Notes under the pieces: model-generated
The model's input: the letters and a program-made list of their open reading frames with translations, nothing else
Databases searched by the model: none
Told to the model about the DNA's origin: nothing
Made by a program: the position numbers and the translations under genes
Assembly (NCBI GenBank): GCA_020631955.1
Contig: JACKGL010000002.1
Location: 13,860-77,859, forward strand
Origin: Candidatus Nomurabacteria bacterium
Lineage (GTDB): Bacteria; Patescibacteriota; Minisyncoccia; Phycocordibacterales; UBA9973
Direction of reading: 5' to 3'
Length of the DNA stretch: 64,000 nt
Shown here: piece after piece, positions 5,082 through 63,980 of the stretch
Layout of the letters: the number at the start of each line of letters is the position of its first letter
Numbering within the stretch: the first letter of the stretch is position 1

Positions 5082-5111
5082 AATATCGTTTTATTGTATC
5101 AAAAATAGACC

Positions 5112-5429: not shown

Positions 5430-5430
5430 A

Positions 5431-6303: not shown

Positions 6304-6449
6304 AGTATTATTCAAAAATTTCTGTCCCGACAGATGGTAACTCCAAATCCGGTATATCCTTAGCAGCTTTGTTAATAGAATATGCAAAAAACACGAGTAC
6401 AAAAAGTGATACAACTATTAAAACATTCGTTAACCAATTCATGTATGTT

Positions 6450-6983
6450 TTATAAAAATCCAAAGTAGTCTAGATATTCTTGGTTTGTAGTAGATATGTC
6501 ATACAAAAATCCGTCTATCTCAATGATATAGTAATTACTTTCTCCGAATTCACCTGGTAATGTCCAATGTTCAAAAGTAAGATTACCGTTTGAAACTTCA
6601 CCTATATATGTACGAGAAGATATAAGTGTTCTCCACTCAGAAGGGTTCCCTGGTATAGTTATAAGCATCTTCTCACTATTCTCATAAATAATTTCATATG
6701 ACACGGCGGCGTACTTCCCTGTAGACATTTCTCTTTTTGTAACAGAAATATTGGGTGTATCAACATAAAAACCGTATTCTGAGTTTTCGTATTCCATAGG
6801 ATGTTCTCCTAAAAAACTATCTGAAGCATCTTCGCCTTCTGGCAAATTATATACCGTCTTTTCTTCTTCTAAATTATTTACAATATCGTTTTTAAATAAT
6901 CTGCAAATATATATACCTAAAAACACAAAGAATAGTACAAATATAATTAATAATATTTTTTTTGTTTTATTATCCATATACAA
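6450..6983 (-). CDS. Hypothetical membrane-anchored protein
   Basis: 177-aa ORF with an N-terminal TM (KKILLIIFVLFFVFLGIYI). It sits between lemA and htpX on the same strand. I recognised no family. Confidence 0.55.
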   Translation of the reverse strand: MYMDNKTKKILLIIFVLFFVFLGIYICRLFKNDIVNNLEEEKTVYNLPEGEDASDSFLGEHPMEYENSEYGFYVDTPNISVTKREMSTGKYAAVSYEIIYENSEKMLITIPGNPSEWRTLISSRTYIGEVSNGNLTFEHWTLPGEFGESNYYIIEIDGFLYDISTTNQEYLDYFGFL

Positions 6984-7000
6984 TTAATCTATCCAATAAT

Positions 7001-7558
7001 TTAAAATTTTACTTCTACCGGCTGGTTTTCTACTCCATCGTCTGGAATATCAAAGAATTCCATTTTTTTAAAATGAAATATACCTGCAAAAACATTTCCT
7101 GGAAACATTTCTATTTTTGTATTTAGATCACGTACGTTTGTGTTGTAAAATCTTCTAGCTGCTTGTATTTTATTTTCTGTATCAGAAAGTTCTCTTTGGA
7201 GTTCTAGAAAGTTTGTGTTGGCTTTTAGTTCTGGGTACGCTTCTGCTATACCGAAAAGTCCTGTTATAGCTTGTCCTAGCATAGCTTCTGTTTTAGAGTG
7301 CTCGCCAGCGGTTTTCGCACTCATAGCGCTCGCTCTAGCTTCTGTAACTTTTTCAAAAGCAGTAGACTCATGGGCAGCATAACCTTTTACTGTGTTTACT
7401 AGGTTAGGTATAAGGTCATATCTTCTTTTTAATTGTACTTCGATATCAGCCCAAGCTTCTTTTGTTCTGTTTATTAGTCTTACAAAACCGTTGTAAAATC
7501 CAATAAAAGCCAAAGCTATCAAGACTAAAATAATAATTAACATTGCTCCAAATGACAT
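7001..7558 (-). CDS. lemA: LemA family protein
   Basis: 185 aa with an N-terminal TM followed by NGFVRLINRTKEAWADIEVQLKRRYDLIPNLVNTVKGYAAHE and ..RRFYNTNVRDLN.., the typical LemA signature. Confidence 0.85.
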   Translation of the reverse strand: MSFGAMLIIILVLIALAFIGFYNGFVRLINRTKEAWADIEVQLKRRYDLIPNLVNTVKGYAAHESTAFEKVTEARASAMSAKTAGEHSKTEAMLGQAITGLFGIAEAYPELKANTNFLELQRELSDTENKIQAARRFYNTNVRDLNTKIEMFPGNVFAGIFHFKKMEFFDIPDDGVENQPVEVKF

Positions 7559-23157: not shown

Positions 23158-23269
<112 letters not shown>

Positions 23270-23339: not shown

Positions 23340-26710
<3,371 letters not shown>

Positions 26711-42081: not shown

Positions 42082-43548
42082 TTAAATTTCTTCCCAAGAC
42101 ACTACTTGGTACTCAGAAGAAGCTTCTGGAAATCCAGGAGGTGGATCCATAAGCAGATTGGCATCGTAGTTGACCTCTACCACCTGATATCCCCCAGAAG
42201 TCGCAGGGTAATAGAAAGCATAATTTTCATTGGATGCTATCATACCATACACCTCTAGTGAAGCCCTTTGTCTATATGTACTACAAGCCGTGCTGCCGTT
42301 GTTGTAATGCATTCTAGACACACCACCATTTTGAGCTACCATAGCAGCATCTATCTCCATAGTGTCATCAGATACAAGACCTATGAGTATATCGTCTTGA
42401 GCTATAAGACCTATAGCATCAGTACCATCATAGTTTGTATACTTCAAATCATGGTTGATTATTATATGTTTTCTGTTTGGTTCTGAATCAGGCAATATAC
42501 CAGCAGCTATAGTAATACGGTCACCATCTATAGTACCGTCCACCCAAACATGATCTTCAAAGAAGAGTTTTCCATCAGCAGGAAAAGAATAATTCCCTAT
42601 ATAAGACTCTCCTCCAGAAAGCTTTATGGTCCATCCTCCCCAATCAGGATCGTTTGGAGGAGCATCAGGGTCTGCACACCCACCACCTATATTTTGTTGA
42701 AGAAGTACAGTATATAAATCATAAGTACCATCAGTATTCAAGACAACATGGTATCCTTGATACCCAGAAGCTGGATAGTAATTACCGGAAGCTTGAGCGG
42801 CTGTTTTTATCTCTGCTAAGTCTTGAGTAATACCGACAAAATCAATAGCAGCTACACCTACTTCTCGTCCAGCCGCAAAAACATCAGATCTAGTAGCTAT
42901 ACTGCTCGGTGGGGCTTCTGCGGGTACAAAGTTGGCATAAGTACCTGTAAGAGGTGGAGGCTTTACGTGAGTATGAACAGCGTGTTCATTGTCTCCAGTA
43001 TGAAGAGGATCATCGTAGTCAACCATAGCGCTAGTAACTATATTATAAATAGTTCCGTCTATTCTAACACCTTGGTTCGAATGTATCGCTCCTGAGACAG
43101 TAGTGTTTTCTGGTATATAGATATTACTATTAGAAACAATAGCCCATTGAACTAATGACTCCTCAGATAAAGTAATTCTTATTGTTCTTGATATAGTAGA
43201 GTCTTCAACTAAAGTACCAGTAGACTCTATTATCACTAGACCAGAGCCTTCTCCTGGTGGAGTGATATCCAAAGAAAATTCTCCTACTTTAAGATCAAAA
43301 AAATCATAGTAGTCATGAATATAAGGACCTGCCACACCTGTGCCATCTTGGAAGTCGTCTGGGTCGTGAGATAAGTGCCATCTATAGTATTCTATTCCAG
43401 CTTCAGCTATTTGAAGGGCTTGCTCACTTAGTGCGATATGATGATTCAATCTTTGCAAAGAAATAGCCCACCCGACAAGTGCTGTCATGGCAGTAATAGC
43501 AACAGAACTAAAAACAATTACTCCGAGTAATAAACTTCCTTTTTTCAT
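42082..43548 (-). CDS. Pilus-associated protein with a PilX-like N-terminus
   Basis: 488 aa. MKKGSLLLGVIVFSSVAITAMTALVGWAISL...ALQIAEAGIEYY resembles the PilX N-terminal domain. It is the last gene of the pilB-pilC-pseudopilin run. Confidence 0.55.
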   Translation of the reverse strand: MKKGSLLLGVIVFSSVAITAMTALVGWAISLQRLNHHIALSEQALQIAEAGIEYYRWHLSHDPDDFQDGTGVAGPYIHDYYDFFDLKVGEFSLDITPPGEGSGLVIIESTGTLVEDSTISRTIRITLSEESLVQWAIVSNSNIYIPENTTVSGAIHSNQGVRIDGTIYNIVTSAMVDYDDPLHTGDNEHAVHTHVKPPPLTGTYANFVPAEAPPSSIATRSDVFAAGREVGVAAIDFVGITQDLAEIKTAAQASGNYYPASGYQGYHVVLNTDGTYDLYTVLLQQNIGGGCADPDAPPNDPDWGGWTIKLSGGESYIGNYSFPADGKLFFEDHVWVDGTIDGDRITIAAGILPDSEPNRKHIIINHDLKYTNYDGTDAIGLIAQDDILIGLVSDDTMEIDAAMVAQNGGVSRMHYNNGSTACSTYRQRASLEVYGMIASNENYAFYYPATSGGYQVVEVNYDANLLMDPPPGFPEASSEYQVVSWEEI

Positions 43549-43558
43549 CTATATTATA

Positions 43559-44173
43559 TTATAGATTAGTTTTTAAGTTTCTGATAGAAACTTGTGTGGA
43601 TATAGTTATAGGTTCTGGCAATTTAAGTGGGTCTGTATCTATAGTAACTTCTATTTCAACAAGTCTAACATCTTCTACACTCACAGGTTGAGTAAGCGGA
43701 TCTGTAGAACCATCATAATTCTCATCATAATATTGGAAAATATATCCTACAGAAGTATCGATACCACTAGCTATTGTGGTGATAGACTCGGCCCCAGAAT
43801 CATATACAGCTGGCACACCTGAAGGCTCTATTATTCCTCTTTTAAAATCTGTCCCATCCAAAAAGTACCTCATTCTCTCTGTCTGCCCATCAGCATCGTA
43901 GTCAGTATAAAAAGTAAATTCATTATCTCCTGCTGTTTCTATAGCATACGCACCGTTTTCTGAGGTCCGTGCAGCTCTTACTTCTCCAGCTATAGGACGC
44001 ATTATTCCACGTAGCTCATCAGCTGCTTTGAGGAATTGTGAAAACATTCTATTGTAATTAAGAACATTTGCTTGAAACTGACCGGCCACTACTGCAACCA
44101 CAGCTGTTATAGCTACAGCCACCAACAGCTCTATATAAGAAAATCCTCTATTTTTATTTTTAATATTTTTCAT
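43559..44173 (-). CDS. Type IV pilin-like protein (prepilin N-terminal cleavage/methylation motif)
   Basis: It starts MKNIKNKNRG|FSYIELLVAVAITAVVAVVAG, the classic class III signal. The start at 44173 avoids overlap with the upstream gene; the ORF extends to 44212. Confidence 0.8.
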   Translation of the reverse strand: MKNIKNKNRGFSYIELLVAVAITAVVAVVAGQFQANVLNYNRMFSQFLKAADELRGIMRPIAGEVRAARTSENGAYAIETAGDNEFTFYTDYDADGQTERMRYFLDGTDFKRGIIEPSGVPAVYDSGAESITTIASGIDTSVGYIFQYYDENYDGSTDPLTQPVSVEDVRLVEIEVTIDTDPLKLPEPITISTQVSIRNLKTNL

Positions 44174-44175
44174 AA

Positions 44176-45996
44176 TTATGTTTCTGACATAAATATTTCT
44201 ACGTTTTGCCAAGAACCTGTTGATACATTTATGACAGCCACCCCTTCATTATAACCAGATTTTTCTACTAAAACATCATACGTACCAGTAGAGACTCCTT
44301 GGAAAGCAACCTGTCCTGATGGTGTACAGTCAGTAGAGTGTGTTATTGCAACATCTGTCACTGTAGGAGTATAAGCTGTATCAGCGGTTGTAAGATATGC
44401 TCTATATCTTACATATTGGTCCCCATCATGTATGCTATTTATCGTTTGGTTGCTGGTAGTATAATAAGTACCAGTTGTGCCGTCAGGACCAAGAAAATTC
44501 CAAGTTGCATTGTCATTGTTTGTAGCTATTTGGAATCTAACACTGTCTGTACCTGTCTCTGCTGGTTGAGAAATTGGAAGCCAAGTGATTTCACCCCATG
44601 TAGATGGTGATCCAGTATCATAGGTAGATGAACGCAAGTTACCAGCAGACACATACGCGCCTAATGTACCAGATATAGTAAGCTCTCCAGCGACGTTGTA
44701 TCTTACATTAGACCTGTTCCAAAACATAGTTTCATCTACAAAGTCTGCCTGCCCTGCTCCTCCTACCCAATCTGTCTGTTGAAAAGTTCCTCTATATGTA
44801 GTGTCTGTAAGTATATCTGTACCACCAGATGTCTGAGTAAGTGTCACATAAGCATCGTCTAAAGGTAACCCACTATTTAGATCTCTTACTGTCACAAGTA
44901 CTGTAGGTGTATTCTTTGCCGCCACAATAAGTTGTACCGATTGTGACTGGCTAGGCTCAACTGTAAAATCTAGAAGAGGGTTGGCTCCTACTATTTCATA
45001 AGAAGCATCATTGGATTCTATACTATATGTATCCCACTCAAGTGAAGATATAGACAGGTTTCCTCCTGAGTCAGTTGTTAGACTCTGATCATATTTATAC
45101 ACACCATAAGTGGGAAAATATCCTATGGTTTTTGCTCCATGCATATCAAAGTCAAAGCTTGCTATAGGTGTACAGGCAGCATCGACAGAGGTTATGTTTC
45201 CGCTACCGTATTTATCAATAGACAAGGTTATTTGAGTGAGATCGTTTTCTAGTACAGTAGCGTGTGGAAGTGTTGGTGTGGCTCCCCCTAGGTCTGTAGA
45301 GTCATATGTTTGGTCTGAGGAGAAAGAAGATGTCTTATCAACATATATTTCATACGCTTGTGTATAAGGTGGAGCATCTACTATAGTAAGTTCTCCATCG
45401 GCCCCCACTTGGTCATCTATAGCTATGGTTGGAGAAGCTTCATAATTCCTTATTCGTACATTGGCTGCTGGAACAGGGTCTCCTTCTGCGTCTATAACTA
45501 TTATCTTGAGTGACCCATTACCTGTGCTGTTTTCTAGACCTTTTGGTGACACTAGAGTTGTAAAAGTCTCCATATTAACAGTGCTTCCTCCTTCTACATA
45601 TCTTATTTTGAGCTCTACTTGCTTTTGATCCGCTGGAGCATCATCATCAGGAGTACCACCTTCAGTACCGTCAAAATCGTTATCTATATTACGTACTGTC
45701 CTATCTACACGAAAAGTCAATCCTTCTTTTATGTAATTAGTAGATGGATCCAATGTTCCCGGAGGAACACCCCCTGCACCGACACCTATGTTTGCATAAG
45801 GCATATTCCTAACTCTCTCAAACTCCTCGTTGGCGAGAGTCGTCATTATTTCTTTTATTTTTATTTTATTATTTAGCTTTACTATAGTAGCCCAAGCTTG
45901 ATATATAGCTAAACTCACCACCAGGAAAAAAGCAGTGGCGACTAAAGTCTCTATCAAAGTAGTACCTTTATTTCTTTTTGAAAAATAATTATACAT
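44176..45996 (-). CDS. Giant pseudopilin (606 aa) with a prepilin-type N-terminus and Ig-like/carboxypeptidase-regulatory-like repeats
   Basis: It starts MYNYFSKRNKG|TTLIETLVATAFFLVVSLAIY. Later segments such as IIVIDAEGDPVPAANVRIRN, VTVRDLNSGLPLDDAYVTL and YDVLVEKSGYNEGVAVINV resemble CarboxypepD_reg-type beta-sandwiches. Confidence 0.7.
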   Translation of the reverse strand: MYNYFSKRNKGTTLIETLVATAFFLVVSLAIYQAWATIVKLNNKIKIKEIMTTLANEEFERVRNMPYANIGVGAGGVPPGTLDPSTNYIKEGLTFRVDRTVRNIDNDFDGTEGGTPDDDAPADQKQVELKIRYVEGGSTVNMETFTTLVSPKGLENSTGNGSLKIIVIDAEGDPVPAANVRIRNYEASPTIAIDDQVGADGELTIVDAPPYTQAYEIYVDKTSSFSSDQTYDSTDLGGATPTLPHATVLENDLTQITLSIDKYGSGNITSVDAACTPIASFDFDMHGAKTIGYFPTYGVYKYDQSLTTDSGGNLSISSLEWDTYSIESNDASYEIVGANPLLDFTVEPSQSQSVQLIVAAKNTPTVLVTVRDLNSGLPLDDAYVTLTQTSGGTDILTDTTYRGTFQQTDWVGGAGQADFVDETMFWNRSNVRYNVAGELTISGTLGAYVSAGNLRSSTYDTGSPSTWGEITWLPISQPAETGTDSVRFQIATNNDNATWNFLGPDGTTGTYYTTSNQTINSIHDGDQYVRYRAYLTTADTAYTPTVTDVAITHSTDCTPSGQVAFQGVSTGTYDVLVEKSGYNEGVAVINVSTGSWQNVEIFMSET

Positions 45997-53430: not shown

Positions 53431-54663
53431 ATGGAAAACAACCTAAATTCACATATAAGTAAAAACATTCCTGGATCAATCCTTAACATGTATAAAATAC
53501 CTGGATTGAAAGAAGTTGTATATGAAAAATACTTAAAAAGTAGAGAGGCGTTTAATCGTGAAGAGTTGGAGAGTTTTGATTATGAGTATTCAATATCAAG
53601 ATTAAAAAATAATATTATTTCAAGTAAAAAAGATGATATCTACGCATTAATTTTAGAGTCTTTAAATAATGATAATATTGAAATACAGAGAGCTGGGGCA
53701 TCATTTATTTACATGACAGATAAAAACACTCAGCAGAAATTAGAAAAATTAGTACTCAATAAAGTTTTTAGTGCGTTAAATACTTCTGATATTCAAATAC
53801 AAAGAATAGGTATGAATATGATACAGTTCACACCTGAAAAAGACCAAGCAGAATTAAGATTTTTAACTAAAAATATAATTGAGTCCGGTCTAAACTCCGA
53901 AGATATACAAATATTCAGAGTCGTGGCAAAAAAAATAAACTTGGCACCGGAAGAATATCAAGAAAAATTAAAAGAGCTTTTATATTTAAAAATTAAAGAA
54001 AAACTGAGTGAAAAAAGCATAATAACTCAAAGAATTGTTGCGACTTTAATAAAATACATACCAGTTAGTAAACAAGATGAATTGAATCGTCTAGTTATAT
54101 CTAAATTCGAGGAAGCAAAAAAGGGTGGAAAAAGTAATGAAATAGTAGAACCTCTATTATACTTAAAAACTAAAATGCCTAATAATTCCAAATTATCAAG
54201 AGAGCAGTTTTCCAAAACAGGTTCAAAAACTACATTATTTTTAGGAGAGAACCTAAAAAATAATTTAATAATGCGCCACATAGAAACTGCTTGTTTCATT
54301 GCATGGAAAGAAGCCTATGAAAATTTTGAGAAATGGAAGTCTGTTGGTTTTGACTACGTACCAATAGAACCTATATATTCTTTTAGCAAAGAAAAAAACA
54401 CCAGCCTTACAAATGTTGTCTCTGGCGTGTTAGATTTAAATCTCGAAGAATGGTATTCGTTTTCTTGTAATTTATTTAAGTCAGATTTAGACGAAAAGAA
54501 AAAAGTTATTATTTCTACACTTGAGAGTATGGGTATTGAACATGGTCACCCTAACAATGATAATTTTTGTTTACGTTTTAATAGAAATGAAGACGGAACT
54601 GTAGATCTTGATACAGTTCCTCGTATATACATGATAGATTTTGATAAATCCTTTAGAAAATAG
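53431..54663 (+). CDS. Protein with four exact-period 38-aa helical (HEAT/ARM-like) repeats and a possible kinase-fold-like C-terminal domain
   Basis: Repeats at aa 78-115, 116-153, 154-191 and 192-229 share L(N/S)..(D/S)I.IQR(A/I)G....I.(F/Y).P...Q.(E/K)L. The C-terminus ..MGIEHGHPNNDNFCL....VPRIYMIDFDKSF vaguely resembles the HGD.H..N / IDF(D/G) blocks of small-molecule kinases. Confidence 0.6.
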   Translation: MENNLNSHISKNIPGSILNMYKIPGLKEVVYEKYLKSREAFNREELESFDYEYSISRLKNNIISSKKDDIYALILESLNNDNIEIQRAGASFIYMTDKNTQQKLEKLVLNKVFSALNTSDIQIQRIGMNMIQFTPEKDQAELRFLTKNIIESGLNSEDIQIFRVVAKKINLAPEEYQEKLKELLYLKIKEKLSEKSIITQRIVATLIKYIPVSKQDELNRLVISKFEEAKKGGKSNEIVEPLLYLKTKMPNNSKLSREQFSKTGSKTTLFLGENLKNNLIMRHIETACFIAWKEAYENFEKWKSVGFDYVPIEPIYSFSKEKNTSLTNVVSGVLDLNLEEWYSFSCNLFKSDLDEKKKVIISTLESMGIEHGHPNNDNFCLRFNRNEDGTVDLDTVPRIYMIDFDKSFRK

Positions 54664-54705
54664 GCGGTATTGAAAAAAATATCTAATTCTGATATAAGTT
54701 TAGCT

Positions 54706-55272
54706 ATGGCTAAGTATATTTTTGACTTTGACGATGTGCTTTTCTTTAATACAGAAAAGTTCAAAAAACATATGTACCAATGTTTTGAGGAAATCGGAGT
54801 ATCGTACGATACAGTGAAAAAATACTATAAAATCGAAAAAGAAAAAGGTTGGGTTCTGCAAAATCTTGTTGAATCAGTTTTGGATGGTGAGAATATAAAA
54901 ATAACCACTAAAGAAGACTTATCTGAAAAGATCATGAGGGTATGTAAAGAGTACACCAATACTGATCTAATAAATAGAATCAAAAAACTAAATAGAGAAG
55001 ACTGCTATATGGTGACTCATGGAGTAAAAGAGTACCAACTAGAGAAAATACAAAGGACTGGTGTGGGTTCATTGTTTAATCAAATTTTTATTGTACAAGA
55101 TACAAAAAAAGATCCTGTTGAAATGATATGTGAGAAGTTTAGAGACGAAGAGGTTATTTTTGTAGACGATAAAGAAAAACGCTTTGCAGATCTTAATTTT
55201 GAAAAATATCCTAACTTGAGAAAAGTATTATATGTAGACAACGAAAGTATTAATAAAATTTTTAATGAGTAA
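54706..55272 (+). CDS. HAD-superfamily hydrolase (phosphatase-like)
   Basis: MAKYIFDFDDVLFFNT is the DxDx(V/T) motif I, and FVDDKEKRF is motif IV-like. The ORF track starts it at a TTG at 54670; ATG 54706 is the more plausible start. Confidence 0.65.
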   Translation: MAKYIFDFDDVLFFNTEKFKKHMYQCFEEIGVSYDTVKKYYKIEKEKGWVLQNLVESVLDGENIKITTKEDLSEKIMRVCKEYTNTDLINRIKKLNREDCYMVTHGVKEYQLEKIQRTGVGSLFNQIFIVQDTKKDPVEMICEKFRDEEVIFVDDKEKRFADLNFEKYPNLRKVLYVDNESINKIFNE

Positions 55273-55278
55273 TTATTA

Positions 55279-57393
55279 ATGAACGATAGTTTTACAAAGT
55301 TTATACCAGAAGATAAATCGTGGCTCACAAGGGTAGGTGTATTAGATATAATAAATGGTTACACAGATATTGAAAAGTTCATCGACCAACTATCTAATGC
55401 AAATGAAGATGTACTCGCTATTAGAAATGCTAGTAAAGACTGGAGAAGTAATAGTAAAATACGTGTTGGTGAATCAGCTACTTTATATAGACTTCTCAGA
55501 TTTGCTGCTTGGAAAATGGATTTAAATAAAACATTTATAATAAAAGGTAGCTTAAAAAAAAGACATATAACAAACAACCCGGAAATAATTAAACTTAAAC
55601 AGAAAGATCTACTTAAATTAGATAATGAAACCACCCAATGGGCGACTGCTTCGGTTATATGTGGTGATTTAGAAAGGTTACCTAACCCACCATTAAAGCT
55701 TAAAGAAACATATGAGGCAGTAGATCATTGGAATTTAAAAAGGGGTCAGGGTTTGTGTTGGGATGTTAAATATGATGTAACGATTGAAAGACAAGCTCAT
55801 ACTTTTCTTATGTTACTTAAAAATAAACCCGTTGATTATACTCCTTTGTGTTCTGATGATTACTGTTTTGCAAGAGTGTTTGATTTTATAAATAAAGAAA
55901 GCGGGGCTAAGTTCTGGCCCAGTTTAATTGGACACGAAACTAACCGTATTGAAGAAATGGAAATAGCTATAAAAGAAGCAGAAAGTACTCTTCACATCAC
56001 ATCAGAAGATCACCGGGTGATACAAGCTCTATCAATGTGGGGTGTATTAAAAAACAAAAATCTTATCTTTAAACATAAAAAAGCTGTGAACAAATCATGG
56101 CCACTTTTTTGGGATTTTTTAGAGTATGCAAAAAAAGAATCAAAAAATGAAAACATTTTAAATGATACCGTAGTTAACAAAACTCATAAAGACATCTTGG
56201 GTATGATTTCTCAAGAAGTAAAAAAAGAGAATGATACTATTTCATTAATACCCTCTGAAAATATAATGAGTAAATTGGCAACTAGTGCATATACACTTAA
56301 CAGTAATAACCGTTATATTATAAAATCTAAAATAGGCTCAAGATATTTCATGCCAGGTAGAGAAAATTTGGGTAATTTAATATCTATTCTTGAGAAAAAA
56401 TTGTGTCAGGCATATAATGTTGAGTTTTGTATAACAAAAGGTCTTTCTGGTATTCACAATATGGATATAGTAATGTCAGCTATTAATAAAATTTCTAATA
56501 AAATTATTATTATAGATACTTTGAGTGGTGGGCATAGTAAAACTAAAGGTATTGCAATAAAAAATGGTTTCCAGGTTGAAACGATAAAAATAGACTTTGA
56601 TACTTGGGATTTAGATTATAAAATTTTAGATAAGCTAATTAAAAAGTGGGAAAAAGAAAGTGTTTTTATTTATATAGACCACACAGTATCAGTTAACCCA
56701 TTAGATATGCACAAGCTTGTAAAGAAAGTTCCCTCTAAGTGGATCATTTATTATGATATCTCCCATTTACAACTGTTTTACTTTACTCAAATTTTTAAAT
56801 TTCCTAGGGGAAAAAACTTCTTTTTTGGTGGAAGTACACATAAAACATTTCCTGGCCCACAAAAGTCTATAGTATTATTAAATAATAGATCATTATATGA
56901 GTTAGTTGATTCTGAATTCGTAAAAAACACCTCTAGTGTACATACCGGCAGTTTATTAGCTCTACTTATAACTGTAATTGAGATGGAGAAGTTTGGTAAA
57001 AAATATGCAGAAGATATATTACTAAAAACAAGAAAGCTCGCTAAATTACTGAGTAGAGAGCTTGATGTGATTGGTCCGAAACCCACTCTAACAAACACTC
57101 ACCAAATCTGTATTGATGTTCCTAATATAGTTGAAATTACTCAACGTCTAGCATCTGTTGGTATTATTACTATGCCCATGAGAACCCCCTCAAAAAATAA
57201 AAGCGGTCTTAGGCTTGGTATACAAGAATTATGCAGACTGGGGTTAAAAGATAAACATTTAGAAACGATATCTAAGGCTATAATTACTTGTGTAAAATAT
57301 GAAGACTTTGAAAGTCAAAAAAGAAACATTTACAGATTAGCTAAAAAGCTAAATAATATAAAATATACATTTCCTAATAAAAAATACTTCTAA
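55279..57393 (+). CDS. Fusion protein: shortened EPSP-synthase (AroA)-like N-terminal domain + divergent serine hydroxymethyltransferase (SHMT)-like PLP domain
   Basis: SHMT half (about aa 300-704): ISLIPSENIMS (vs IELIASENYTS), RYFMPG, SGGHSKTKG (vs HGGHLTHG), DISHLQL (vs DMAHVAGL), GGSTHKTFPGPQ (vs TTTTHKTLAGPRG, the PLP-Lys), NTHQICIDV (vs DNHLFLVDL) and SGLRLGIQELCRLG (vs SGIRVGTPAITRRG). N-terminal half: KSWLTRVGVL (vs AroA KSVSNRALLL), VGESATLYRLLRFAAW...IIKGSLKKRHI (vs LGNAGTAMRPLAAAL...LTGEPRMKERPI) and SEDHRVIQALSMWGVL......KSWPLFWDFLE (vs YNDHRMAMCFSLVAL......KTFPDYFEQL). Confidence 0.7.
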   Translation: MNDSFTKFIPEDKSWLTRVGVLDIINGYTDIEKFIDQLSNANEDVLAIRNASKDWRSNSKIRVGESATLYRLLRFAAWKMDLNKTFIIKGSLKKRHITNNPEIIKLKQKDLLKLDNETTQWATASVICGDLERLPNPPLKLKETYEAVDHWNLKRGQGLCWDVKYDVTIERQAHTFLMLLKNKPVDYTPLCSDDYCFARVFDFINKESGAKFWPSLIGHETNRIEEMEIAIKEAESTLHITSEDHRVIQALSMWGVLKNKNLIFKHKKAVNKSWPLFWDFLEYAKKESKNENILNDTVVNKTHKDILGMISQEVKKENDTISLIPSENIMSKLATSAYTLNSNNRYIIKSKIGSRYFMPGRENLGNLISILEKKLCQAYNVEFCITKGLSGIHNMDIVMSAINKISNKIIIIDTLSGGHSKTKGIAIKNGFQVETIKIDFDTWDLDYKILDKLIKKWEKESVFIYIDHTVSVNPLDMHKLVKKVPSKWIIYYDISHLQLFYFTQIFKFPRGKNFFFGGSTHKTFPGPQKSIVLLNNRSLYELVDSEFVKNTSSVHTGSLLALLITVIEMEKFGKKYAEDILLKTRKLAKLLSRELDVIGPKPTLTNTHQICIDVPNIVEITQRLASVGIITMPMRTPSKNKSGLRLGIQELCRLGLKDKHLETISKAIITCVKYEDFESQKRNIYRLAKKLNNIKYTFPNKKYF

Positions 57394-57560
57394 TTTTATT
57401 TCCATGCACATCAGCTAGTTATGTGGGGGAAAATGGTTTGACAAAAGGGTAAAATAATGATTCAATAGAGATAAGAGGATTTGTTGGGAATACTACGTAA
57501 ATTTCCAACCTCAATCCCCTGAATTCCTTAAAAATTTTATAACACTAAACCCTAACTATC

Positions 57561-58820
57561 ATGAAAAAGTTAACTATTTTTTTGTTAACCTCTATCATGA
57601 TGATAGGGGTAACTTTTGGACAATTTAACACCTACCACTTCGAAGGAGTGGAGGCGTTCTCTTTTGACTGGGAAAATGGTGAAGAAGCCACCACTTCCAA
57701 TTCGTTCTTCGAGATCGATGAGGAGAAATTTGGCTACAGCCACCTGAATATCCAGAAAGAAGACGGCAGAACGTTCTTGGTGAATTCCAAGAATGATGTG
57801 GCCGAGTACTTCAACTACACCTTAGCCGACAGGCCGGTGGATGTAGTAACCGTAAATAGCGGTGTGATATTCGTATCCACCAAAAACGGAATCTACAACC
57901 TGGAAACAGGGGAAATGCTCTCTGGTATCGAAGGTTTCATCACTGGAACCAATGGTAATATCAGGATGGATTACGACCCCGTGCTCAACCGCTTGTATTT
58001 CGCAGGTGGAAAAGTAGAAGGGTTCGGCTTCAGAGACTTTGAAAGTGGTATAACCACTTTTTACGGTTATCTGGATGAATTTCCTGACTATGCTGTCAAC
58101 GATATCGAAGTAGTGGATGGTGATGTATACATCGGAGCTGGTGAGCTTTGGGTGTATAACGTCATATCTGAAGACTTCGGACTGATCGAAGGTGTGCCGA
58201 GCTTCCTTTCAGTAGGAGGTATCGATGAACTCCCGGACGGATCTATATTTGTAGGTGGTGCTGACCTAAGCAACCAGAACACACTGGTATGGATCAAGAA
58301 TGGAACATACCAGAACGAGTACGCTTTATCTGGCATCCCTTTCTTCTACAATGGTGAATACTTCCTTAGTGGAAGTGCCGGACCTGCAGACGACGGGTAT
58401 TTCCATTACTTTGATCCTGTAACTGGTATCACGTCATCTGTGGTGGCTAGTGGAGTGGATATGCAAAACAACATCCAAGTAACTTTAGTTGATGGAGAGT
58501 TTTGGTTTTATTCACAATACGGAATAGCTACAAACATTGTAGGTGTAATGGGCTACTATGGTTATCCTGTGGCCAGACTGACCGATGACGAGATCGTGGG
58601 TATCCATGATACACAGATACTGTCATTTACTATCTACCCCAACCCCACCACTGAGTGGGTGAAGGTAGAAGGGCTCCCTGCCGGGACTCCTTTGTGGATG
58701 ACAGATGCCATTGGTCGTAGCATAGAGGTTACCCTCATCGCTGCCAACACCATCGATGTGAGTCGACTCCAATCAGGAATTTACTTCCTCAATGGAAAAA
58801 AACTCATAATCCAAAAGTAA
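57561..58820 (+). CDS. Secreted beta-propeller-like protein with a type IX secretion (Por) C-terminal sorting domain; compositionally foreign
   Basis: It has the signal peptide MKKLTIFLLTSIMMIGVTFGQ. The last 65 aa or so, LSFTIYPNPTTEWVKVEGLPAGTPLWMTDAIGRSIEVTLIAANTIDVSRLQSGIYFLNGKKLIIQK, match the T9SS CTD pattern (YPNP...., .D..G(R/K)........ID.S.L..G.Y). Hand GC count is 27/60 at 57661-57720 against 19/60 at 56401-56460. Confidence 0.75.
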   Translation: MKKLTIFLLTSIMMIGVTFGQFNTYHFEGVEAFSFDWENGEEATTSNSFFEIDEEKFGYSHLNIQKEDGRTFLVNSKNDVAEYFNYTLADRPVDVVTVNSGVIFVSTKNGIYNLETGEMLSGIEGFITGTNGNIRMDYDPVLNRLYFAGGKVEGFGFRDFESGITTFYGYLDEFPDYAVNDIEVVDGDVYIGAGELWVYNVISEDFGLIEGVPSFLSVGGIDELPDGSIFVGGADLSNQNTLVWIKNGTYQNEYALSGIPFFYNGEYFLSGSAGPADDGYFHYFDPVTGITSSVVASGVDMQNNIQVTLVDGEFWFYSQYGIATNIVGVMGYYGYPVARLTDDEIVGIHDTQILSFTIYPNPTTEWVKVEGLPAGTPLWMTDAIGRSIEVTLIAANTIDVSRLQSGIYFLNGKKLIIQK

Positions 58821-58894: not shown

Positions 58895-58918
58895 AAATCC
58901 CGACTTGAGTCGGGATTT
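58895..58918 (-). terminator. Terminator of the minus-strand secreted-protein operon
   Basis: aaatcccgac-ttga-gtcgggattt lies 23 nt downstream of the stop at 58941. Confidence 0.7.
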
Positions 58919-58940: not shown

Positions 58941-59759
58941 CTATAGACAAAGGTTGTTGTTCTGAGCCGCTACACCACCATAGTGAGTGCTAGAGTTTTT
59001 ACCTGTGACATCTGTGACGTCTAGGTCTATACCCCAGCTATATAGTGGATAGTTCTTGTCTACTACTAGAGTAATACTAGAAGAAGTGGTGCCTCCTGAT
59101 ATGGTAGCATCTCCTACGAGAGAGTGCCAAGAATATGTATATGGAGGAGCCCCTGCACCACCTATGGTAGCAGAAAGTGATATGGTCTCACTACAAGTAC
59201 CACTAGATATAGTGCTCTTTGTGATGGTAATAGGGAGACTCTGGCTACATATGACCACCTTGCCATCTGCGTCTGCACAAAGCGGCGCTCCGTATAGTAT
59301 GTCTGGATTTTCAGCTGAAGAAAGTGAGTTTATTTTAATTGAGTTACTATTAGGAAAATCTATATGTAAAGCCTCAGTTGGAGATGACTCTGCAATTCCA
59401 ATCTTTCCACCCACGAAAACAGAAGCATCTTCATTGTAAGGAATAGTACCCACAAAAGCAGATCCTTCTTCTAAAATGGATGACCCTTCAACATAGGTGC
59501 CTTTCGTAAATGATATACCCCCGGCGTCAAACTTATAGTTTACCAAGTCAGCAAGAGCTGGGTCTGCATATCCTACAGCCACAGAACCTTGTCTGGTCTG
59601 GTCTGGTGAAAGTCTGTTCACTGGTGTAGCGACATTGTTTAGTGGTGGCGCACCGTCAGCGTTGGTCCATGTAGCATCTGCTCTATCCATACGAGCCATA
59701 CCTATAGCTAGTACTAGAGCAAGACTTATTATTCCTATTGTACGATAAATTTTTTTCAT
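58941..59759 (-). CDS. Secreted Gly/Thr/Ser-rich protein, paralog C (W..PP..N...P(I/V)N motif, Cys-loop, C-terminal P.TY.W Ig-like domain)
   Basis: The start MKKIYRTIGIISLALVLAIG is signal-like. Motifs are TWTNADGAPPLNNVATPVNRLSPDQTRQGSVAVG, GGKIGIAESSPTEALHI, LCADADGKVVIC and GGAGAPPYTYSW. The ORF extends to 59792. Confidence 0.7.
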   Translation of the reverse strand: MKKIYRTIGIISLALVLAIGMARMDRADATWTNADGAPPLNNVATPVNRLSPDQTRQGSVAVGYADPALADLVNYKFDAGGISFTKGTYVEGSSILEEGSAFVGTIPYNEDASVFVGGKIGIAESSPTEALHIDFPNSNSIKINSLSSAENPDILYGAPLCADADGKVVICSQSLPITITKSTISSGTCSETISLSATIGGAGAPPYTYSWHSLVGDATISGGTTSSSITLVVDKNYPLYSWGIDLDVTDVTGKNSSTHYGGVAAQNNNLCL

Positions 59760-59763
59760 AACA

Positions 59764-60747
59764 CTAATCACATATACTTGTATCTGGTCCACCGTCTGCG
59801 GCTTCTACATAATCTTGAGACAATACCCAAAATGGTCCGATAGAAGCACTCTCTGTGCTACCCCCAGAGCTGACTGAAAGGTTGATACTGTATGTAGTAC
59901 TTAGGTTGTCAGCTGTATTTCTATACACTTTTATTTTTGGAGCAGAACTGCTGTATGGTGCAGATGTAGTCACTACCGGTGCACCACCAGCCTCACCTGC
60001 TACATATGTCACTGTCCATGTGTATGTATAGCTCCCTGTTCCACCTGTAGCGTACACAGTAGGGAAATGATTGAGATATTCGCATTCTTGAACCGCTGAA
60101 CCATAAGAGAGATTGGCAGAAAGACTGGCTCCACCTTCTTCACAAAGACTCAATACTCCACTAGAGCTGACACATATCTCTACTGGGTTTTCTTCACCGT
60201 GAGCAAGTCCTGCTAGTCTAAGAGACCCTCCATCACTAGCAATATGTAGACCTTGTTCTGGACTATCAGTACCCACTCCTATCTTCCCTCCTACAAGAAG
60301 TTTAGAAGAAGGCTGATAAGGAAGTACTCCTACAAATACTCCGTCTGTAGTAAGTACATCAGATGTGCTTCTAAGCCCTCTTGAGACAGTGGCTCCGTTT
60401 ACATCTAGTCTATAAGTATCTAAGTCGTAGTCAGACACTCCTGGTATACAACCTAGAGCTAGCCCTCCGCTTTTAGTACCACTAGCTGTATCTTTATTGA
60501 AAATATCTTTTATCTGTCCACCTGGAAAACCCGCTACAGGCTCTGCCCAAGGAGAGTCTACATAGCAGCTACCTAAATATACATCATCAGCATCTGCCAG
60601 GTCAGTGTCTGCTGTACCTACTTCTTCTACTGGAGGACCTGGATCTATATCTTCTTCACCTACAATATCAGCACTGGCTTGTCCGAGACCTATCACCAAA
60701 AGCAGTGCAAGGAAAAATATTTTTAGTGTATTAAAATCTTTTTTCAT
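59764..60747 (-). CDS. Secreted Gly/Thr/Ser-rich protein, paralog B
   Basis: The start is MKKDFNTLKIFFLALLLVIGLGQASA. Motifs are GGKIGVGTDSPEQGLHI, ICVSSSGVLSLC and GGTGSYTYTW. The ORF extends to 60765. Confidence 0.7.
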   Translation of the reverse strand: MKKDFNTLKIFFLALLLVIGLGQASADIVGEEDIDPGPPVEEVGTADTDLADADDVYLGSCYVDSPWAEPVAGFPGGQIKDIFNKDTASGTKSGGLALGCIPGVSDYDLDTYRLDVNGATVSRGLRSTSDVLTTDGVFVGVLPYQPSSKLLVGGKIGVGTDSPEQGLHIASDGGSLRLAGLAHGEENPVEICVSSSGVLSLCEEGGASLSANLSYGSAVQECEYLNHFPTVYATGGTGSYTYTWTVTYVAGEAGGAPVVTTSAPYSSSAPKIKVYRNTADNLSTTYSINLSVSSGGSTESASIGPFWVLSQDYVEAADGGPDTSICD

Positions 60748-60748
60748 A

Positions 60749-61597
60749 CTAACACTCAGTATCATAAGTTACTAATCCTGTTACTGTACCTGTGTATGTA
60801 TCACTTCTAGTGTATCCGTTGTCATCTGTCACTGAGACTGATACTGAGTAGTTGGTTATAGGAAAAGTATCTCTCTCTACTCGCACTATGACAGAAGAAG
60901 CAGAACTAGTACCTATGATAGAGTTGCCACTCGTATCACCAGTAAGAGTCCATGAGTATGTAAATGGTGACTTCCCTGAGGTGTTTGGATAAGCTGCTAT
61001 TATGGCGTCATAGTTACAGTTGTTGGCTGGCTGTGCGTCGTAGCTGTTTACAAACTCTGCACTTACTTCAAAAAGGTTTTGGCAAAGGTTGAATACCCCA
61101 TCTTCGTCAGCGCAAAGTCTAGCAGGATACACTGTACCAGGAGCTTGGTTGGCTGAAGCAAACTTTTCTATCTTAGCTGTGCCATCTATGTCAACACTAG
61201 CTTGTGCTGCTAGTGAGTAACCATTTTTAAGTGATCCATTTAAAATCAAGTTCGAGTCTGGTGAAGTAAAAGCAGAGTCTACCCAACCAACATCCAAAGT
61301 ACTAAATTCATCTGTCCCTTGTATTATAATATTTCCCTCATTAGCAAGGCCAGATGTCTTCAGGCTCCCACACACTTCAAGCGTACCTTCTCCTCCAGGA
61401 CATGTTCCGTTACCCACACGAAGACCTCCTTGTTTTACTTGGTTGGTAGTAGTGGTATTTATCGGAGCTGGAGTATTGCCTAGTGGCGGATTGTCTGAAG
61501 GTTGATTCCAAGCAGCACTAGCAAGCCCAGCAAACCCAACTATCACTAGAGCTAGGAGAAATGTTTTTATCAAGTTTTGATCATTTTTTCTCATCAT
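60749..61597 (-). CDS. Secreted Gly/Thr/Ser-rich protein, paralog A
   Basis: The signal is ..FLLALVIVGFAGLASA|AW. Motifs are AWNQPSDNPPLGNTPAPINTTTTNQVKQGGLRVG, LCADEDGVFNLC and SGKSPFTYSW. Confidence 0.7.
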   Translation of the reverse strand: MMRKNDQNLIKTFLLALVIVGFAGLASAAWNQPSDNPPLGNTPAPINTTTTNQVKQGGLRVGNGTCPGGEGTLEVCGSLKTSGLANEGNIIIQGTDEFSTLDVGWVDSAFTSPDSNLILNGSLKNGYSLAAQASVDIDGTAKIEKFASANQAPGTVYPARLCADEDGVFNLCQNLFEVSAEFVNSYDAQPANNCNYDAIIAAYPNTSGKSPFTYSWTLTGDTSGNSIIGTSSASSVIVRVERDTFPITNYSVSVSVTDDNGYTRSDTYTGTVTGLVTYDTEC

Positions 61598-61609
61598 TTG
61601 TATTATACA

Positions 61610-63580
61610 CTATCTTTCTATAATAATAGGTGGCACCCCTCTACACTCTGGTGAAGTAGATTCTGCAGTACAAAGCACAGGACATTCTTCTGTTTCTGGA
61701 TCACAAGGTTCTTCTCCTACTCCCACGTACGCATATGCAGCTATATCTGACCCTCCATAAAGTGGAGTACATCTTAGGGTAAATGTAGTAGAAGCTGTCA
61801 CTGAAACGTTTTCACTACCATCACCATCTTCACAGTCCACCGGACCAAATGATGATGAAGGTAAGGACAAAGCTTCTCCTCCTGTAGTGTTAGAAGTAGT
61901 CCAAGAAAGATTTACTGTTCCACCAGGATAAGCAAGTGTAGTAGGACTAGCAGTAAGAGTCAGAGTAGCTTCTGCATCACATTCTTCTCCGTTTGGATCG
62001 TTTGGATTGGAGTCTACACACTCTCCATCTACTACTACTGGTGCGTTGATAGCTGCACTACATGAAGAAGATGTTCCGTCAGTACTTGTTACATTTACTG
62101 TATAGACTGTTTCTGGTGCTGTGAAAGCAAGGTTGTTTGCACTACCGTTGACCGCGACTGCTCCTCCCCATGAGGCTGTAGCTGAAGTAGCGTTGGTAGA
62201 TGTCCAAGCTATGTCTACTTGTCCGTCTTCTAATGTTGCTGAAGTGATGTTACATGAAGGAGTAAGTGTACCTCTAGCTACTACTGTTTCTGCAGTGTCT
62301 ACTGCTCCGCCGACTGCTTGAGTACATTGGATTCTAAATATTGTAGGGTTGGTACCGACGTATACGTTAGGCAATGAAGCTGAAGGTGTAGTCGCATTTA
62401 TAGCTGCACGAGGTCCGTCAAATCCTGAAGGTGGTGTAGAAGGAGGAATAGTGGTACCTGTACATGAAAGATAGTTTGTTCCTGAAGGAGTAAACCATGT
62501 CAAAGTAGTTTTATATCCTCCAGTAGAAAATACAGGTGAAGGAGTAGCTTGAAGTACAAGTCTTGTTCCTGCATTACATTCTAGAGCTACTGTGACAGAA
62601 GATGAGTAAGGGTTTCCATCAGCTCCAGTACAGTTGAGAGTATAGGTGGTAGGATTGGCACTCGGTGTGACTGTGGTAGATCCTGAAGGTATAGTCACTG
62701 ATTCTCCTGTAATAATAGCGTCTGAAGAAGAAAGTGAACAAGAAGCCATGTCTTGTGTAGACCATGAAAGAGTAACTGGTTCAGTACATGTAGAAGCAGA
62801 TGAAGAAGTAAGGTTCACTTGTGGTTGGTCCATATCTACTACTACAGAATAAGTAGGACCTGAAAACTTAGTCCATCCTACTACTTCATCTCCCCAAGCA
62901 TAACCTGAAAATTGCCCTGCTCCGTAAAGATCAGGTACAGAAACGCCATAAGATGATCCTCCAAATATTCCAGAACATCCAAATATTCCACTGTTGTCAC
63001 ATGAAAGTGATATCCATCCGTCCCAATCATCACCGTGAGCCAGCACTCTAGCCCATCCTGTAATATCACCAGAAGCCAGATCTACTTTAGGAGTACATGT
63101 TCCTTCTGGACAACCTCCTTCGTTGAAAGATATCCATCCTACTTCACTACTCCAAGCATATCCACTCATGTTACCTGTAAGAGGGTCTACGTTTACTCCG
63201 TAGTTTGATCCATCATAAGGAATGTCTACTGCTACAGCTTTTTTGGTGGAAAAAACATTGGAAGCTATCTTGAAAAGATTGAACTTAGCTACTTTGTCTA
63301 CAAAAGAAATATTTTTAGGATTTTCATAGTAGGCAGCAAGCTCTCTATAGTCTTGGTATGTAGGACCGAAAGTTATATCTTCTCCTACACCTCCATCTTC
63401 TGTATCTGCTGTCAGACATGCATCGTTGTCTGTACAGTTGAAAGATATATAACCAATATTTTTAGACCAAGCTAGACCAGACACGTTGTCGCCAGAATCG
63501 GCAAAAGCCTTTCCAGTAAAAGCAAAGGCTACAAAGAGTATTAAGGCAACTAATTTAATTTTATTAAGCATATTTAACAT
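61610..63580 (-). CDS. Large secreted protein: four G(Y/L/W)AW....GWISF repeats followed by four or more Ig-like L.W.T domains
   Basis: The signal is MLNMLNKIKLVALILFVAFAFTGKAFA. The repeats are SGLAWSKNIGYISFN, SGYAWSSEVGWISFN, TGWARVL..WDGWISLS and SGYAWGDEVVGWTKFS. The later domains are VTLSWSTQDMASCSL, TTLTWFTPSGTNYLSC, VDIAWTSTNATSATAS and VNLSWTTSNTTGG. Confidence 0.7.
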   Translation of the reverse strand: MLNMLNKIKLVALILFVAFAFTGKAFADSGDNVSGLAWSKNIGYISFNCTDNDACLTADTEDGGVGEDITFGPTYQDYRELAAYYENPKNISFVDKVAKFNLFKIASNVFSTKKAVAVDIPYDGSNYGVNVDPLTGNMSGYAWSSEVGWISFNEGGCPEGTCTPKVDLASGDITGWARVLAHGDDWDGWISLSCDNSGIFGCSGIFGGSSYGVSVPDLYGAGQFSGYAWGDEVVGWTKFSGPTYSVVVDMDQPQVNLTSSSASTCTEPVTLSWSTQDMASCSLSSSDAIITGESVTIPSGSTTVTPSANPTTYTLNCTGADGNPYSSSVTVALECNAGTRLVLQATPSPVFSTGGYKTTLTWFTPSGTNYLSCTGTTIPPSTPPSGFDGPRAAINATTPSASLPNVYVGTNPTIFRIQCTQAVGGAVDTAETVVARGTLTPSCNITSATLEDGQVDIAWTSTNATSATASWGGAVAVNGSANNLAFTAPETVYTVNVTSTDGTSSSCSAAINAPVVVDGECVDSNPNDPNGEECDAEATLTLTASPTTLAYPGGTVNLSWTTSNTTGGEALSLPSSSFGPVDCEDGDGSENVSVTASTTFTLRCTPLYGGSDIAAYAYVGVGEEPCDPETEECPVLCTAESTSPECRGVPPIIIER

Positions 63581-63581: not shown

Positions 63582-63980
63582 CTATTGTAAAAATCTCGAT
63601 ACCATATCTATTTGTTCGGCACTGGCTTCAATACCGTTGTCTTTTGCAAATTCAGCGTTGATAGCAGCTTCTTTCTCAGGATCAACTTCACTAGAAGCTA
63701 CTGCTTGGCGACTCTTTAAGAATTCGTATATTTCTGTTTTTTGTTCTAAAGTAAGTCCTTCTTGTGTGGTCTTTTTACTTTCAAGTATAAGCACTAAGAA
63801 AATAACAATAGCTGCTACTATAAGTGAAACAAAAAACATAACTCTAGCAGGAGACATTTTGTTGTTTCCTCCAGGTGTGATTATAGGTGCATCATAATGC
63901 GTTGGCTCCATTGATTGAACACTGTCCATATAAAAAATTATATCACTTTTAATGTTCACAGCACAAGACATGTACTGCAT
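63582..63980 (-). CDS. Small single-TM protein at the head of the secreted-protein operon (start uncertain)
   Basis: 132-aa ORF with a TM (VMFFVSLIVAAIVIFLVLIL). Possible internal starts are MDSVQSM and MSPARVM. Its stop is 1 nt before the next gene's start. Confidence 0.5.
   Translation of the reverse strand: MQYMSCAVNIKSDIIFYMDSVQSMEPTHYDAPIITPGGNNKMSPARVMFFVSLIVAAIVIFLVLILESKKTTQEGLTLEQKTEIYEFLKSRQAVASSEVDPEKEAAINAEFAKDNGIEASAEQIDMVSRFLQ

Follow-up and report, generated by a model that had tools for sequence, protein, structure and literature searches.

Three tandem paralogous secreted proteins of a Candidatus Nomurabacteria genome: candidate adhesive fibres with a constant N-terminal module and exchangeable Ig-like tips

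How ultrasmall bacteria belonging to the candidate phyla radiation (CPR) recognize their hosts and attach to them is an open question. Type IV pili and a few adhesins of Saccharibacteria are the structures implicated so far (PMC11665869). Among described systems, the closest parallel to the proteins considered here is found in the mosaic adhesive trimer (MAT) fibres of Bdellovibrio bacteriovorus, whose motif consists of "capping loops" on an intertwined trimeric beta-helix and is common to S74-type phage fibres (Caulton et al., 2024; PMC10769870). The subject of this report is a group of three adjacent genes in a 64,000-nucleotide (nt) stretch of DNA, called the window in what follows, from a Candidatus Nomurabacteria genome (GenBank assembly GCA_020631955.1, contig JACKGL010000002.1, positions 13,860 to 77,859 of the forward strand). 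The genes lie between window positions 58,941 and 61,597 and encode paralogous proteins that combine an export signal, a constant N-terminal module (N-module), a stalk that in two of the three carries the MAT-type repeat, and an Ig-like tip. We consider it somewhat probable that they are Sec-exported adhesive fibres, anchored to the cell, probably trimeric and equipped with exchangeable heads.

All three genes are on the minus strand. Paralog 1 (60749..61597), transcribed first, encodes a protein of 282 amino acids (aa); paralog 2 (59764..60747) encodes 327 aa and paralog 3 (58941..59759) 272 aa, counted in both cases from an MKK start, the longest open reading frames (ORFs) being 333 and 283 aa. 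NCBI H6790_00360 of Candidatus Nomurabacteria has the same sequence as the 327-aa protein. Pairwise identity is 25–30% over approximately the full length, and the BLASTP matches, with E-values from 1.6e-9 to 6e-17, identify the three proteins as true paralogs. A first-pass annotation of the window, made from the sequence without database searches, had described tandem, collinear and tightly spaced genes for secreted proteins with shared motifs, and this description stands. The spacers measure 12, 1 and 4 nt: TAG-12nt-ATG between the gene for a 656-aa protein and paralog 1, TAG-T-ATG between paralogs 1 and 2, and TAG-TGTT-ATG between paralogs 2 and 3. Each product begins with a predicted signal peptide made up of a basic n-region, a hydrophobic core of 15–17 aa and an AxA end. 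On alignment the shared motifs hold, namely W..PP..N...P(I/V)N......Q.(K/R).G, the Cys loops, (Y/F)TY(S/T)W and a Cys in the last or penultimate position; the tryptophans of the tip and of the N-module and four cysteines are invariant in a family alignment of 17–23 sequences. The pattern GGKIG(I/V)...P...LHI, which the annotation had given to all three, is present in the 327- and 272-aa paralogs, but the 282-aa paralog has a degenerate version. The N-terminal motif of the middle paralog is more diverged, as had been stated, but that was an incomplete account, as it is also displaced by a 41-aa acidic insert after the signal peptide.

The N-module follows directly upon the AxA end of the leader and has the pattern W(T)xP(T)xxPPxGNxxxP(I/V)NxxxxxQxKxGxLxxG, in which the W, two Asn, the Gln and a Gly are invariant and the Lys is nearly so. 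In paralog 1 the signal peptide comprises residues 1–28/29, with LASA before and AW after the predicted cut, and the N-module residues 30–62 (61412-61510). In paralog 3 the corresponding segments are residues 1–29 (RADA before, TW after) and 31–63 (59571-59669). In paralog 2 the signal peptide (residues 1–25) and the N-module (67–100; 60448-60549) are separated by the acidic insert. A hidden Markov model (HMM) of the leader and N-module, built from other members, matched the 282-aa protein with E=1.9e-24, the 272-aa protein with E=4e-19 and the 327-aa protein, where the match is split by the insert, with E=3.5e-10; no ORF of the window outside the three paralogs matched it. Across the superfamily the consensus reads MKKKIIQTIKIILLALVLSVGVSYVSA for the leader and AWTEPTATPPGGNVSAPINVSSTSQTKSGGLTVGG for the mature N-terminus.

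Word-indexed protein searches returned 6, 9 and 14 matches with scant annotation, and it was through an exhaustive profile search that the superfamily became visible: 1,960 clusters at the 50% identity level were found at E<=1e-3. Leader and N-module are present in 104 of 159 retrieved proteins, which have highly dissimilar C-termini. The sequences behind the N-module include tail-fibre-like repeats, collagen-IV NC1-like, Gly-rich and SprB-like Ig domains, and Cys-rich knots. Pfam, NCBIfam and PHROG hold no model for the N-module, the stalk or the GWISF domain described below, as judged from scans of the three paralogs, the neighbouring 656- and 132-aa proteins, canonical family members and eight GWISF proteins. 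When one genome per GTDB species was scanned for the N-module, 64 loci were obtained, often several per genome and nearly all in Patescibacteria (Nomura-, Yonath-, Kaiser-, Taylor-, Wolfe- and Nealsonbacteria, Paceibacterota and Minisyncoccia). Related loci are cited by L numbers, and some related proteins by P numbers, where they have to be told apart. Two N-module loci have labels from outside Patescibacteria, L054 (Omnitrophota) and L059 (Gammaproteobacteria, with a 2043-aa protein); these may reflect mis-binning or rare transfer. Judged by sequence, the paralogs belong to a large, unannotated, Patescibacteria-specific superfamily. The literature searches turned up no paper on the N-module, on GWISF repeats or on fibres of the MAT kind in Patescibacteria.

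Many superfamily members have two to five copies of a stalk unit, GNVGIGTTxPxxKLxVxG. The unit GGKIGVGTDSPEQGLHIA in paralog 2 (residues ~153-170; 60238-60291) and the unit GGKIGIAESSPTEALHID in paralog 3 (~116-139; 59343-59414) are such copies. When a profile of 36 stalk units was compared with all PDB sequences, five entries matched, every one a MAT fibre of B. bacteriovorus. The best was 8ond (Bd2133), with E=2e-19 and three units matched, followed by 8oml (2e-8), 8ojn (2e-7), 8on4 (1e-5) and 8ol4 (5e-4), and there was no further match below E=0.6. A unit HMM from which the subfamily of the paralogs had been left out still recovered the 327-aa paralog at E=1.5e-7 and the 272-aa paralog at E=1e-3. 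The statement in the annotation that the family could not be assigned to any characterised system is thereby superseded, since the stalk repeat is the capping-loop motif of the Bdellovibrio fibres. The end of the N-module (GxLxVG....P......LDVxG) resembles a looser first copy of the stalk unit; on that likeness the Pro-rich segment would be an N-terminal extension of the fibre itself.

Stalk and tip meet at a loop bracketed by two cysteines. The loops are LCADEDGVFNLC, ICVSSSGVLSLC and LCADADGKVVIC in paralogs 1, 2 and 3, at residues 161–172 (61082-61117), 191–202 (60142-60177) and 160–171 (59247-59282), and the Ig-like tips occupy residues 173–282, 203–327 and 172–272, respectively; paralog 1 has a degenerate stalk before its loop. 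The form [LIV]C[AV]D..G.L.LC recurs across the superfamily, some members of which stop just behind it; others add Ig-like, Gly_rich_2 or further domains. In the subfamily of the paralogs there are four invariant cysteines: the pair in the loop, another where the tip begins and the last near the C-terminus. CPR bacteria encode MdbA-like and VKOR-like proteins, which makes disulfides plausible (PMC6744442).

The first-pass annotation had compared the terminal domain with SprB/PKD-like repeats, and the comparison is borne out by structure prediction and profile searches. In an AlphaFold2 monomer of the 272-aa paralog, residues ~175-268 form an Ig-like sandwich with pLDDT >90. Foldseek searches with this predicted tip returned only generic Ig-type folds and nanobodies, and the family profile matches large SprB-repeat and K319L-PKD adhesins. 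In Pfam, no tip reached a gathering score; the best match, to K319L-like_PKD, was 16 bits against a cut-off of 27 and concerned the 282-aa protein only.

For a comparison of histories, the proteins were cut at the Cys loop and the N- and C-terminal parts were compared separately. The phylogenies and best matches of the two parts conflict. L002_3 and L004_3 are 83% identical before the loop and have unrelated tips, the nearest tips being those of P0009 for the former and P0013 for the latter. The window's 327-aa paralog shares 70% identity with P0006 in the stalk and, in the tip, 54% with P0012, a protein with a different stalk; the tip of P0006 is nearest to that of the 282-aa paralog of the window. 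Conservation is lowest in the tip in every orthologous pair. As read from these sequence comparisons, the Cys loop marks a recombination junction between stalk and tip, across which tips have been exchanged between orthologous stalks. A constant base joined to a mosaic, fast-changing head is a signature of receptor-binding proteins.

The three genes do not stand alone, as the annotation had treated them. They make up the variable portion of a conserved cassette that also encodes a 656-aa and a 132-aa protein and that recurs in related loci. The 656-aa protein (61610..63580, minus strand) has a signal peptide, four to five Trp-rich hairpins, Cys-rich Ig-like domains and the conserved C-terminal tail ...VPPIIIER; its GWISF domain lies at residues ~28-245. 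Its hairpins are GLAWSKNIGYISF, GYAWSSEVGWISF, GWARVL...DWDGWISLSC and GYAWGDEVVGWTKF, and the forms GYAWSxxIGWISF, GWDGWISLSG and SGYAWGGEVVGWIxFSG occur in its family, here called GWISF-repeat proteins. It is 40% identical to a 666-aa protein of L002 and 38–40% identical to the ~660-aa proteins of L002 and L004. PDB sequence searches with it and with a neighbouring 419-aa protein gave no useful match. The C-terminal tails of GWISF proteins, at 61610-61640 in the window and in loci L016 to L066, take the forms P[DK]FEE[IF], PPIIIER, KPWYYER, HPHYIEN, KQF and WQF, with an extra hydrophobic segment behind the tail in L048 and L054; such tails could be sorting or interaction signals.

The first cassette gene encodes a small single-pass membrane protein (63582..63980, minus strand; ORF of 132 aa), with its probable start at M42, near position 63857. 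HMM comparison finds homologs in L002 and L003. Its tail carries a motif of the type L(T)xEQKxEIxxFL, related to tandem (S/T)xEEKxxILxxL repeats in the small transmembrane proteins of other cassettes. Two to three repeats of the form (S/T)xEEKxxILxxL(S/N) are present in such proteins at L003 5748-6044, L010 5589-5975, L011, L113, L146 and others, for which no family was found. A small transmembrane ORF lies directly upstream in 31 of 125 cassettes.

In L002 and L004 the order of genes is that of the small membrane protein, the ~660-aa protein, three module proteins and a protein with a tail of the type IX secretion system (T9SS); L004 is cut at its 5' end, within the ~660-aa gene. L069 has a ~700-aa protein and three module proteins, with the T9SS-tail gene convergent as in the window, and L003 shows a variant order. 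A GWISF gene is present in 20 of the 64 loci anchored on the N-module, co-directional in all 20 and within 700 bp in 18. Conversely, an N-module gene was found in 40 of 80 GWISF-anchored loci, in 39 of them co-directional and within 1 kb; these 80 loci were taken from at least 448 relatives, and most of the module-free ones have truncated flanks. Cassettes contain one to five module genes, and there is no one-to-one correspondence between the three paralogs of the window and those of L002, L004 or L069. A fixed heterotrimer, from which strict one-to-one orthology would be expected, is therefore not indicated. L109 carries a double cassette at 942-7128, all on one strand: a pair of N-module genes and a GWISF gene, followed by three further N-module genes and a second GWISF gene. 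In L016 (6488-7054) and L024 (6626-7018) a gene for a signal peptidase I of the Peptidase_S26 family lies within the cassette, between the N-module and GWISF genes; it is absent from the cassette of the window and from most loci. Its presence is a hint, by analogy with SipW, that the unusually conserved leader is processed by an enzyme of its own.

A scan for promoters and terminators found none inside the cassette above chance level. A perfect 9-bp hairpin, AAATCCCGA-CTCAAG-TCGGGATTT (58895..58918, minus strand), lies directly 3' of paralog 3 and probably marks the end of the transcription unit; its weak T-tail accounts for its having been missed by the terminator scan. The region of the paralogs has a G+C content of 0.42-0.44. 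G+C at third codon positions (GC3) is 0.21-0.30, equal to that of housekeeping genes, and the excess is confined to codon positions 1 and 2, which follows from the abundance of Gly, Ala, Ser and Thr in the proteins. By this measure the paralogs and the 656-aa gene count as native, and horizontal acquisition of the paralogs was rejected.

Convergent with the cassette is a plus-strand gene (57561..58820) for the 419-aa protein, whose C-terminus is a sorting domain of the T9SS type (Por_Secre_tail). The T9SS belongs to the Bacteroidota, and none is known from CPR bacteria. The first-pass annotation had called this gene foreign. Its codon usage is indeed atypical (GC3 0.50, against 0.21-0.30 for its neighbours), but a gene of the same type is found at the same place, behind the cassette, in four other loci: L002 (5411-6748), L004 (4173-5498), L069 (8283-8894, minus strand) and L070 (9203-10513). 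The likeness between the window gene and the others is restricted to the C-terminal domain, and a non-orthologous gene seems to have taken over a conserved position here. The T9SS-tail gene is a possible member of the cassette.

The adjoining block at 53431-57393 consists of three low-GC genes (0.29-0.30) on the plus strand in an otherwise minus-strand region; they encode proteins of 410 aa, of 200 aa (HAD-like) and of 704 aa (with a divergent SHMT-like domain). The genome behind L070 is related to that of the window, the FtsX and ABC proteins of the two being 64–65% identical, and in L070 the cassette is directly followed by the T9SS-tail gene, FtsX and ABC; in the window the FtsX and ABC genes directly precede PilB. 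From this order the block is probably an insertion or inversion, and the whole plus-strand stretch 53431-58820 looks like one in an older arrangement. Farther off in the window are the genes for 5S rRNA (23159-23266, minus strand) and 23S rRNA (23340-26707, minus strand), the latter ~440 nt longer than the model and containing a group I intron (23680-23879). Group I introns in 23S rRNA are typical of CPR bacteria.

The type IV pilus cluster of the window, at 43.5-49 kb, includes PilB, PilC, an N_methyl pseudopilin (43559-44212) and a ComGE-like protein. PilB ends at 48969, some 10 kb from the paralogs, as the annotation had it. Also in this cluster, on the minus strand, are genes for a 606-aa protein with a ComGE/pseudopilin-like N-terminus and a CarboxypepD_reg domain (44176-45996) and for a 488-aa protein with only a faint bactofilin-like match (42082-43548); the two are possibly modular minor pilins. 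The link between cassette and pilus goes beyond the proximity that had been noted. PilB, PilC or pilin genes are present in the flanks of 25 of 148 related loci, and the cassette abuts such genes co-directionally within 400 bp in at least 10 (among them L050, L077, L105, L119, L144, L132, L115 and L117), these being raw counts with no genome-wide null behind them. Pfam finds the N_methyl class III signal in the pseudopilin at 43559-44212 and in none of the three paralogs.

On the reading of the paralogs as anchored adhesive fibres, the leader would be cut at AxA, and the Pro-rich N-module would form the constant, cell-proximal end, running straight into the first turn of the fibre. The stalk of ~100 aa would trimerise as in MAT fibres; that it is a trimer is made probable by the capping-loop repeat, which it has in common with those trimeric fibres. 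The CxxxxGxxxxC loop would be stapled by a disulfide and the Ig-like head closed by a second pair of cysteines. The constant N-module would retain all members of the family on the cell, and its docking partner would most plausibly be the 656-aa GWISF-repeat protein and/or the small membrane protein. Three different heads would then be presented for the recognition of host or prey surfaces, alongside type IV pili, and the exchange of heads between stalks is as expected of binding domains under diversifying pressure. A role at the cell surface or in contact with a host, which the annotation had suggested from location and composition, is still the best reading.

Several observations weigh against it. 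The reading is built on sequence comparison and AlphaFold2 monomers. The 282-aa paralog gave no significant match with the leave-out unit HMM. The paralogs are shorter than MAT fibres by a factor of three to four, with only one to two repeat units, and the N-module (~35 aa) differs from the MAT N-domain (~130 aa). An AlphaFold2 monomer computed with six sequences had a pLDDT of 42.7; with 23 sequences the tip alone folded, and pLDDT was <50 over almost all of residues 25–141 of the 272-aa paralog, that is, over the stalk. Such low values in the models would fit an obligate oligomer, but are equally expected of disorder. Retention on the cell, rather than release, is our interpretation. The linkage of GWISF and module genes points to a shared function and not to physical docking; at least seven well-flanked GWISF loci lack a detectable module gene, and 50 of the 64 module loci have a single module gene. 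The rawness of the pilus-adjacency counts belongs here as well.

Other explanations account for parts of the same evidence. A stalk repeat common to S74-type phage fibres (PMC10769870), together with a faint match of P0041 to Phage_T4_gp36 (E=0.045), would be expected if the three genes encoded the tail fibres of a prophage or its remnant, the identification that the first-pass annotation had named as fatal to its own view. There is no PHROG match better than E=0.03, a tblastn search of 50,697 phage genomes was empty, and IMG/VR holds no relative of the N-module. Nearby genes encode PNPase, a sigma factor, ABC/FtsX and pilus components, and none is a structural or integration gene of a phage. 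Codon usage is native, and the products have Sec signal peptides and no Peptidase_S74 domain in Pfam. The phage explanation is extremely improbable and was rejected. Less remote, yet still rather unlikely, is that the cassette serves the type IV pilus as an accessory, its GWISF and module proteins forming a non-pilin adhesin complex of the tip or shaft that is displayed on the pilus in the manner of PilY1/PilC. PilY1-type tip adhesins are likewise Sec-exported non-pilins, pilus genes flank or abut cassettes in the loci counted above, and in L070 the cassette and its Por gene are followed by the FtsX and ABC genes that precede PilB in the window. Against this, some 83% of the loci have no pilus gene in their flanks, and the adjacency counts are raw. 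Neither the three paralogs nor the 656-aa protein have the N_methyl signal that the window pseudopilin has, and searches of Pfam/NCBIfam and of PDB sequences found no similarity to PilY1 or to minor pilins.

The paralogs might instead be structural proteins of the envelope, S-layer-like or part of a wall scaffold, their number reflecting structural redundancy and not the recognition of other cells. An envelope layer would be compatible with the signal peptides, the Ig-like domains, the paired cysteines and a W-rich partner that has the look of a wall-binding repeat protein. Structural layers, however, are usually built from a single abundant and conserved subunit. In this family the distal domain is the one that evolves fastest and is swapped between stalks, dozens of unrelated tips occur (collagen-IV NC1-like, Gly-rich and SprB-like among them), and the stalk motif is that of adhesive fibres; an envelope scaffold is therefore unlikely. 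Release from the cell is the remaining explanation, with the paralogs as toxins, bacteriocin-like proteins or effectors that manipulate the host, and with the leader and module serving as a secretion or maturation signal for a dedicated signal peptidase. The polymorphic tips, the unusual conservation of the leader across the family and the S26 genes in the L016 and L024 cassettes, which recall SipW with TasA/TapA, speak for such effectors. They are nevertheless very unlikely: Pfam, NCBIfam and PHROG show no toxin, enzyme or immunity-like domain in the paralogs or their neighbours, the tips are plain Ig sandwiches, and the module is retained in the mature protein, where it runs on into the fibre repeat.

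The adhesive-fibre reading admits a wider, more tentative form, which we put forward as a possibility only. The cassettes may represent a lineage-specific, hitherto undescribed surface-display system of Parcubacteria/Paceibacteria, composed of the small membrane protein with its EEKxxILxxL repeats, the GWISF protein as dock, and interchangeable MAT-like fibres that set the host range of an epibiont. The Trp-rich hairpins of the GWISF protein would grip the Pro-rich N-module, by analogy with WW, GYF and SH3 domains on polyproline II peptides. Each genome would have a repertoire of fibres with one leader and N-module and with different heads. The system would often be encoded inside type IV pilus operons, and the paralogs of the window would be three heads on one dock. 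If the adhesive-fibre reading is right, the N-module and the GWISF domain provide a searchable marker of candidate host-recognition genes in thousands of uncultured genomes, as well as concrete pairs of proteins for structural and binding studies. What is newly defined is a CPR-restricted superfamily with a constant end, the fibre motif of a predator's prey-recognition fibres, exchangeable heads and a linked partner.

Several known systems resemble the cassette in part. S74 phage fibres and tailspikes, such as T5 pb1 and the K1F endosialidase, have a capping-loop-type motif (PMC10769870) and modular receptor-binding tips, but the paralogs are Sec-exported and lack the S74 domain, a phage context and phage homologs. 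The SprB/PKD-like Ig domains of Bacteroidota T9SS adhesins share the Ig-like sandwich and the PYTYSW signature of the tips, and a gene with a T9SS-type C-terminal domain adjoins the paralogs; in contrast, the tip of the paralogs is a single domain, bracketed by a family-specific Cys pair, and the paralogs have no T9SS C-terminal domain. The TapA-SipW-TasA operons of Bacillus also encode secreted proteins of fibres or of the matrix whose leaders are unusually conserved, and in L016 and L024 an S26 peptidase gene is likewise placed between fibre and partner genes. The paralogs have no sequence similarity to TasA/camelysin, however, and the peptidase gene is absent from the window cassette. PilY1/PilC non-pilin adhesins are Sec-exported, are encoded beside pilus genes and have a proposed role in attachment; they differ in that no sequence similarity to the paralogs was detected and in that pilus adjacency of the kind seen here occurs in a minority of loci.

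The MAT fibres of B. bacteriovorus (Caulton et al., 2024; PMC10769870) come closest, with differences that are also plain. At 272-327 aa the paralogs fall short of the ~600-1,150 aa of MAT fibres, and they have one to two units where MAT fibres have long beta-helices. Their constant end is Pro-rich and ~35 aa long, against a beta-rich domain of ~130 aa; with so short a conserved stretch, identity with the MAT N-domain is unlikely, the PDB entries holding MAT tips only. They have no S74 chaperone, and the junction between stalk and tip is a Cys-stapled loop. The cell is a monoderm-like CPR bacterium and not a Gram-negative one, and the GWISF and small membrane proteins have no described MAT counterpart. 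The likenesses extend over the whole plan of the proteins: a signal peptide, a constant N-terminal end, a stalk with the repeat GxVGIGTxxPxxxLxV, which is the capping loop, and an exchangeable C-terminal head, with many paralogs per genome, in a comparison with an organism that itself lives on other bacteria. Of the features by which MAT fibres are defined, the paralogs thus share the signal peptide, the capping-loop motif (V-G-G/N-pi-x-x-P-x-x-x-L, in two of the three) and the mosaic tips. They differ from MAT fibres in length and probably in the N-domain, the trimeric state being a prediction, and the proteins are probably best described as adhesive fibres of the MAT kind that have a lineage-specific constant end and a dedicated partner.

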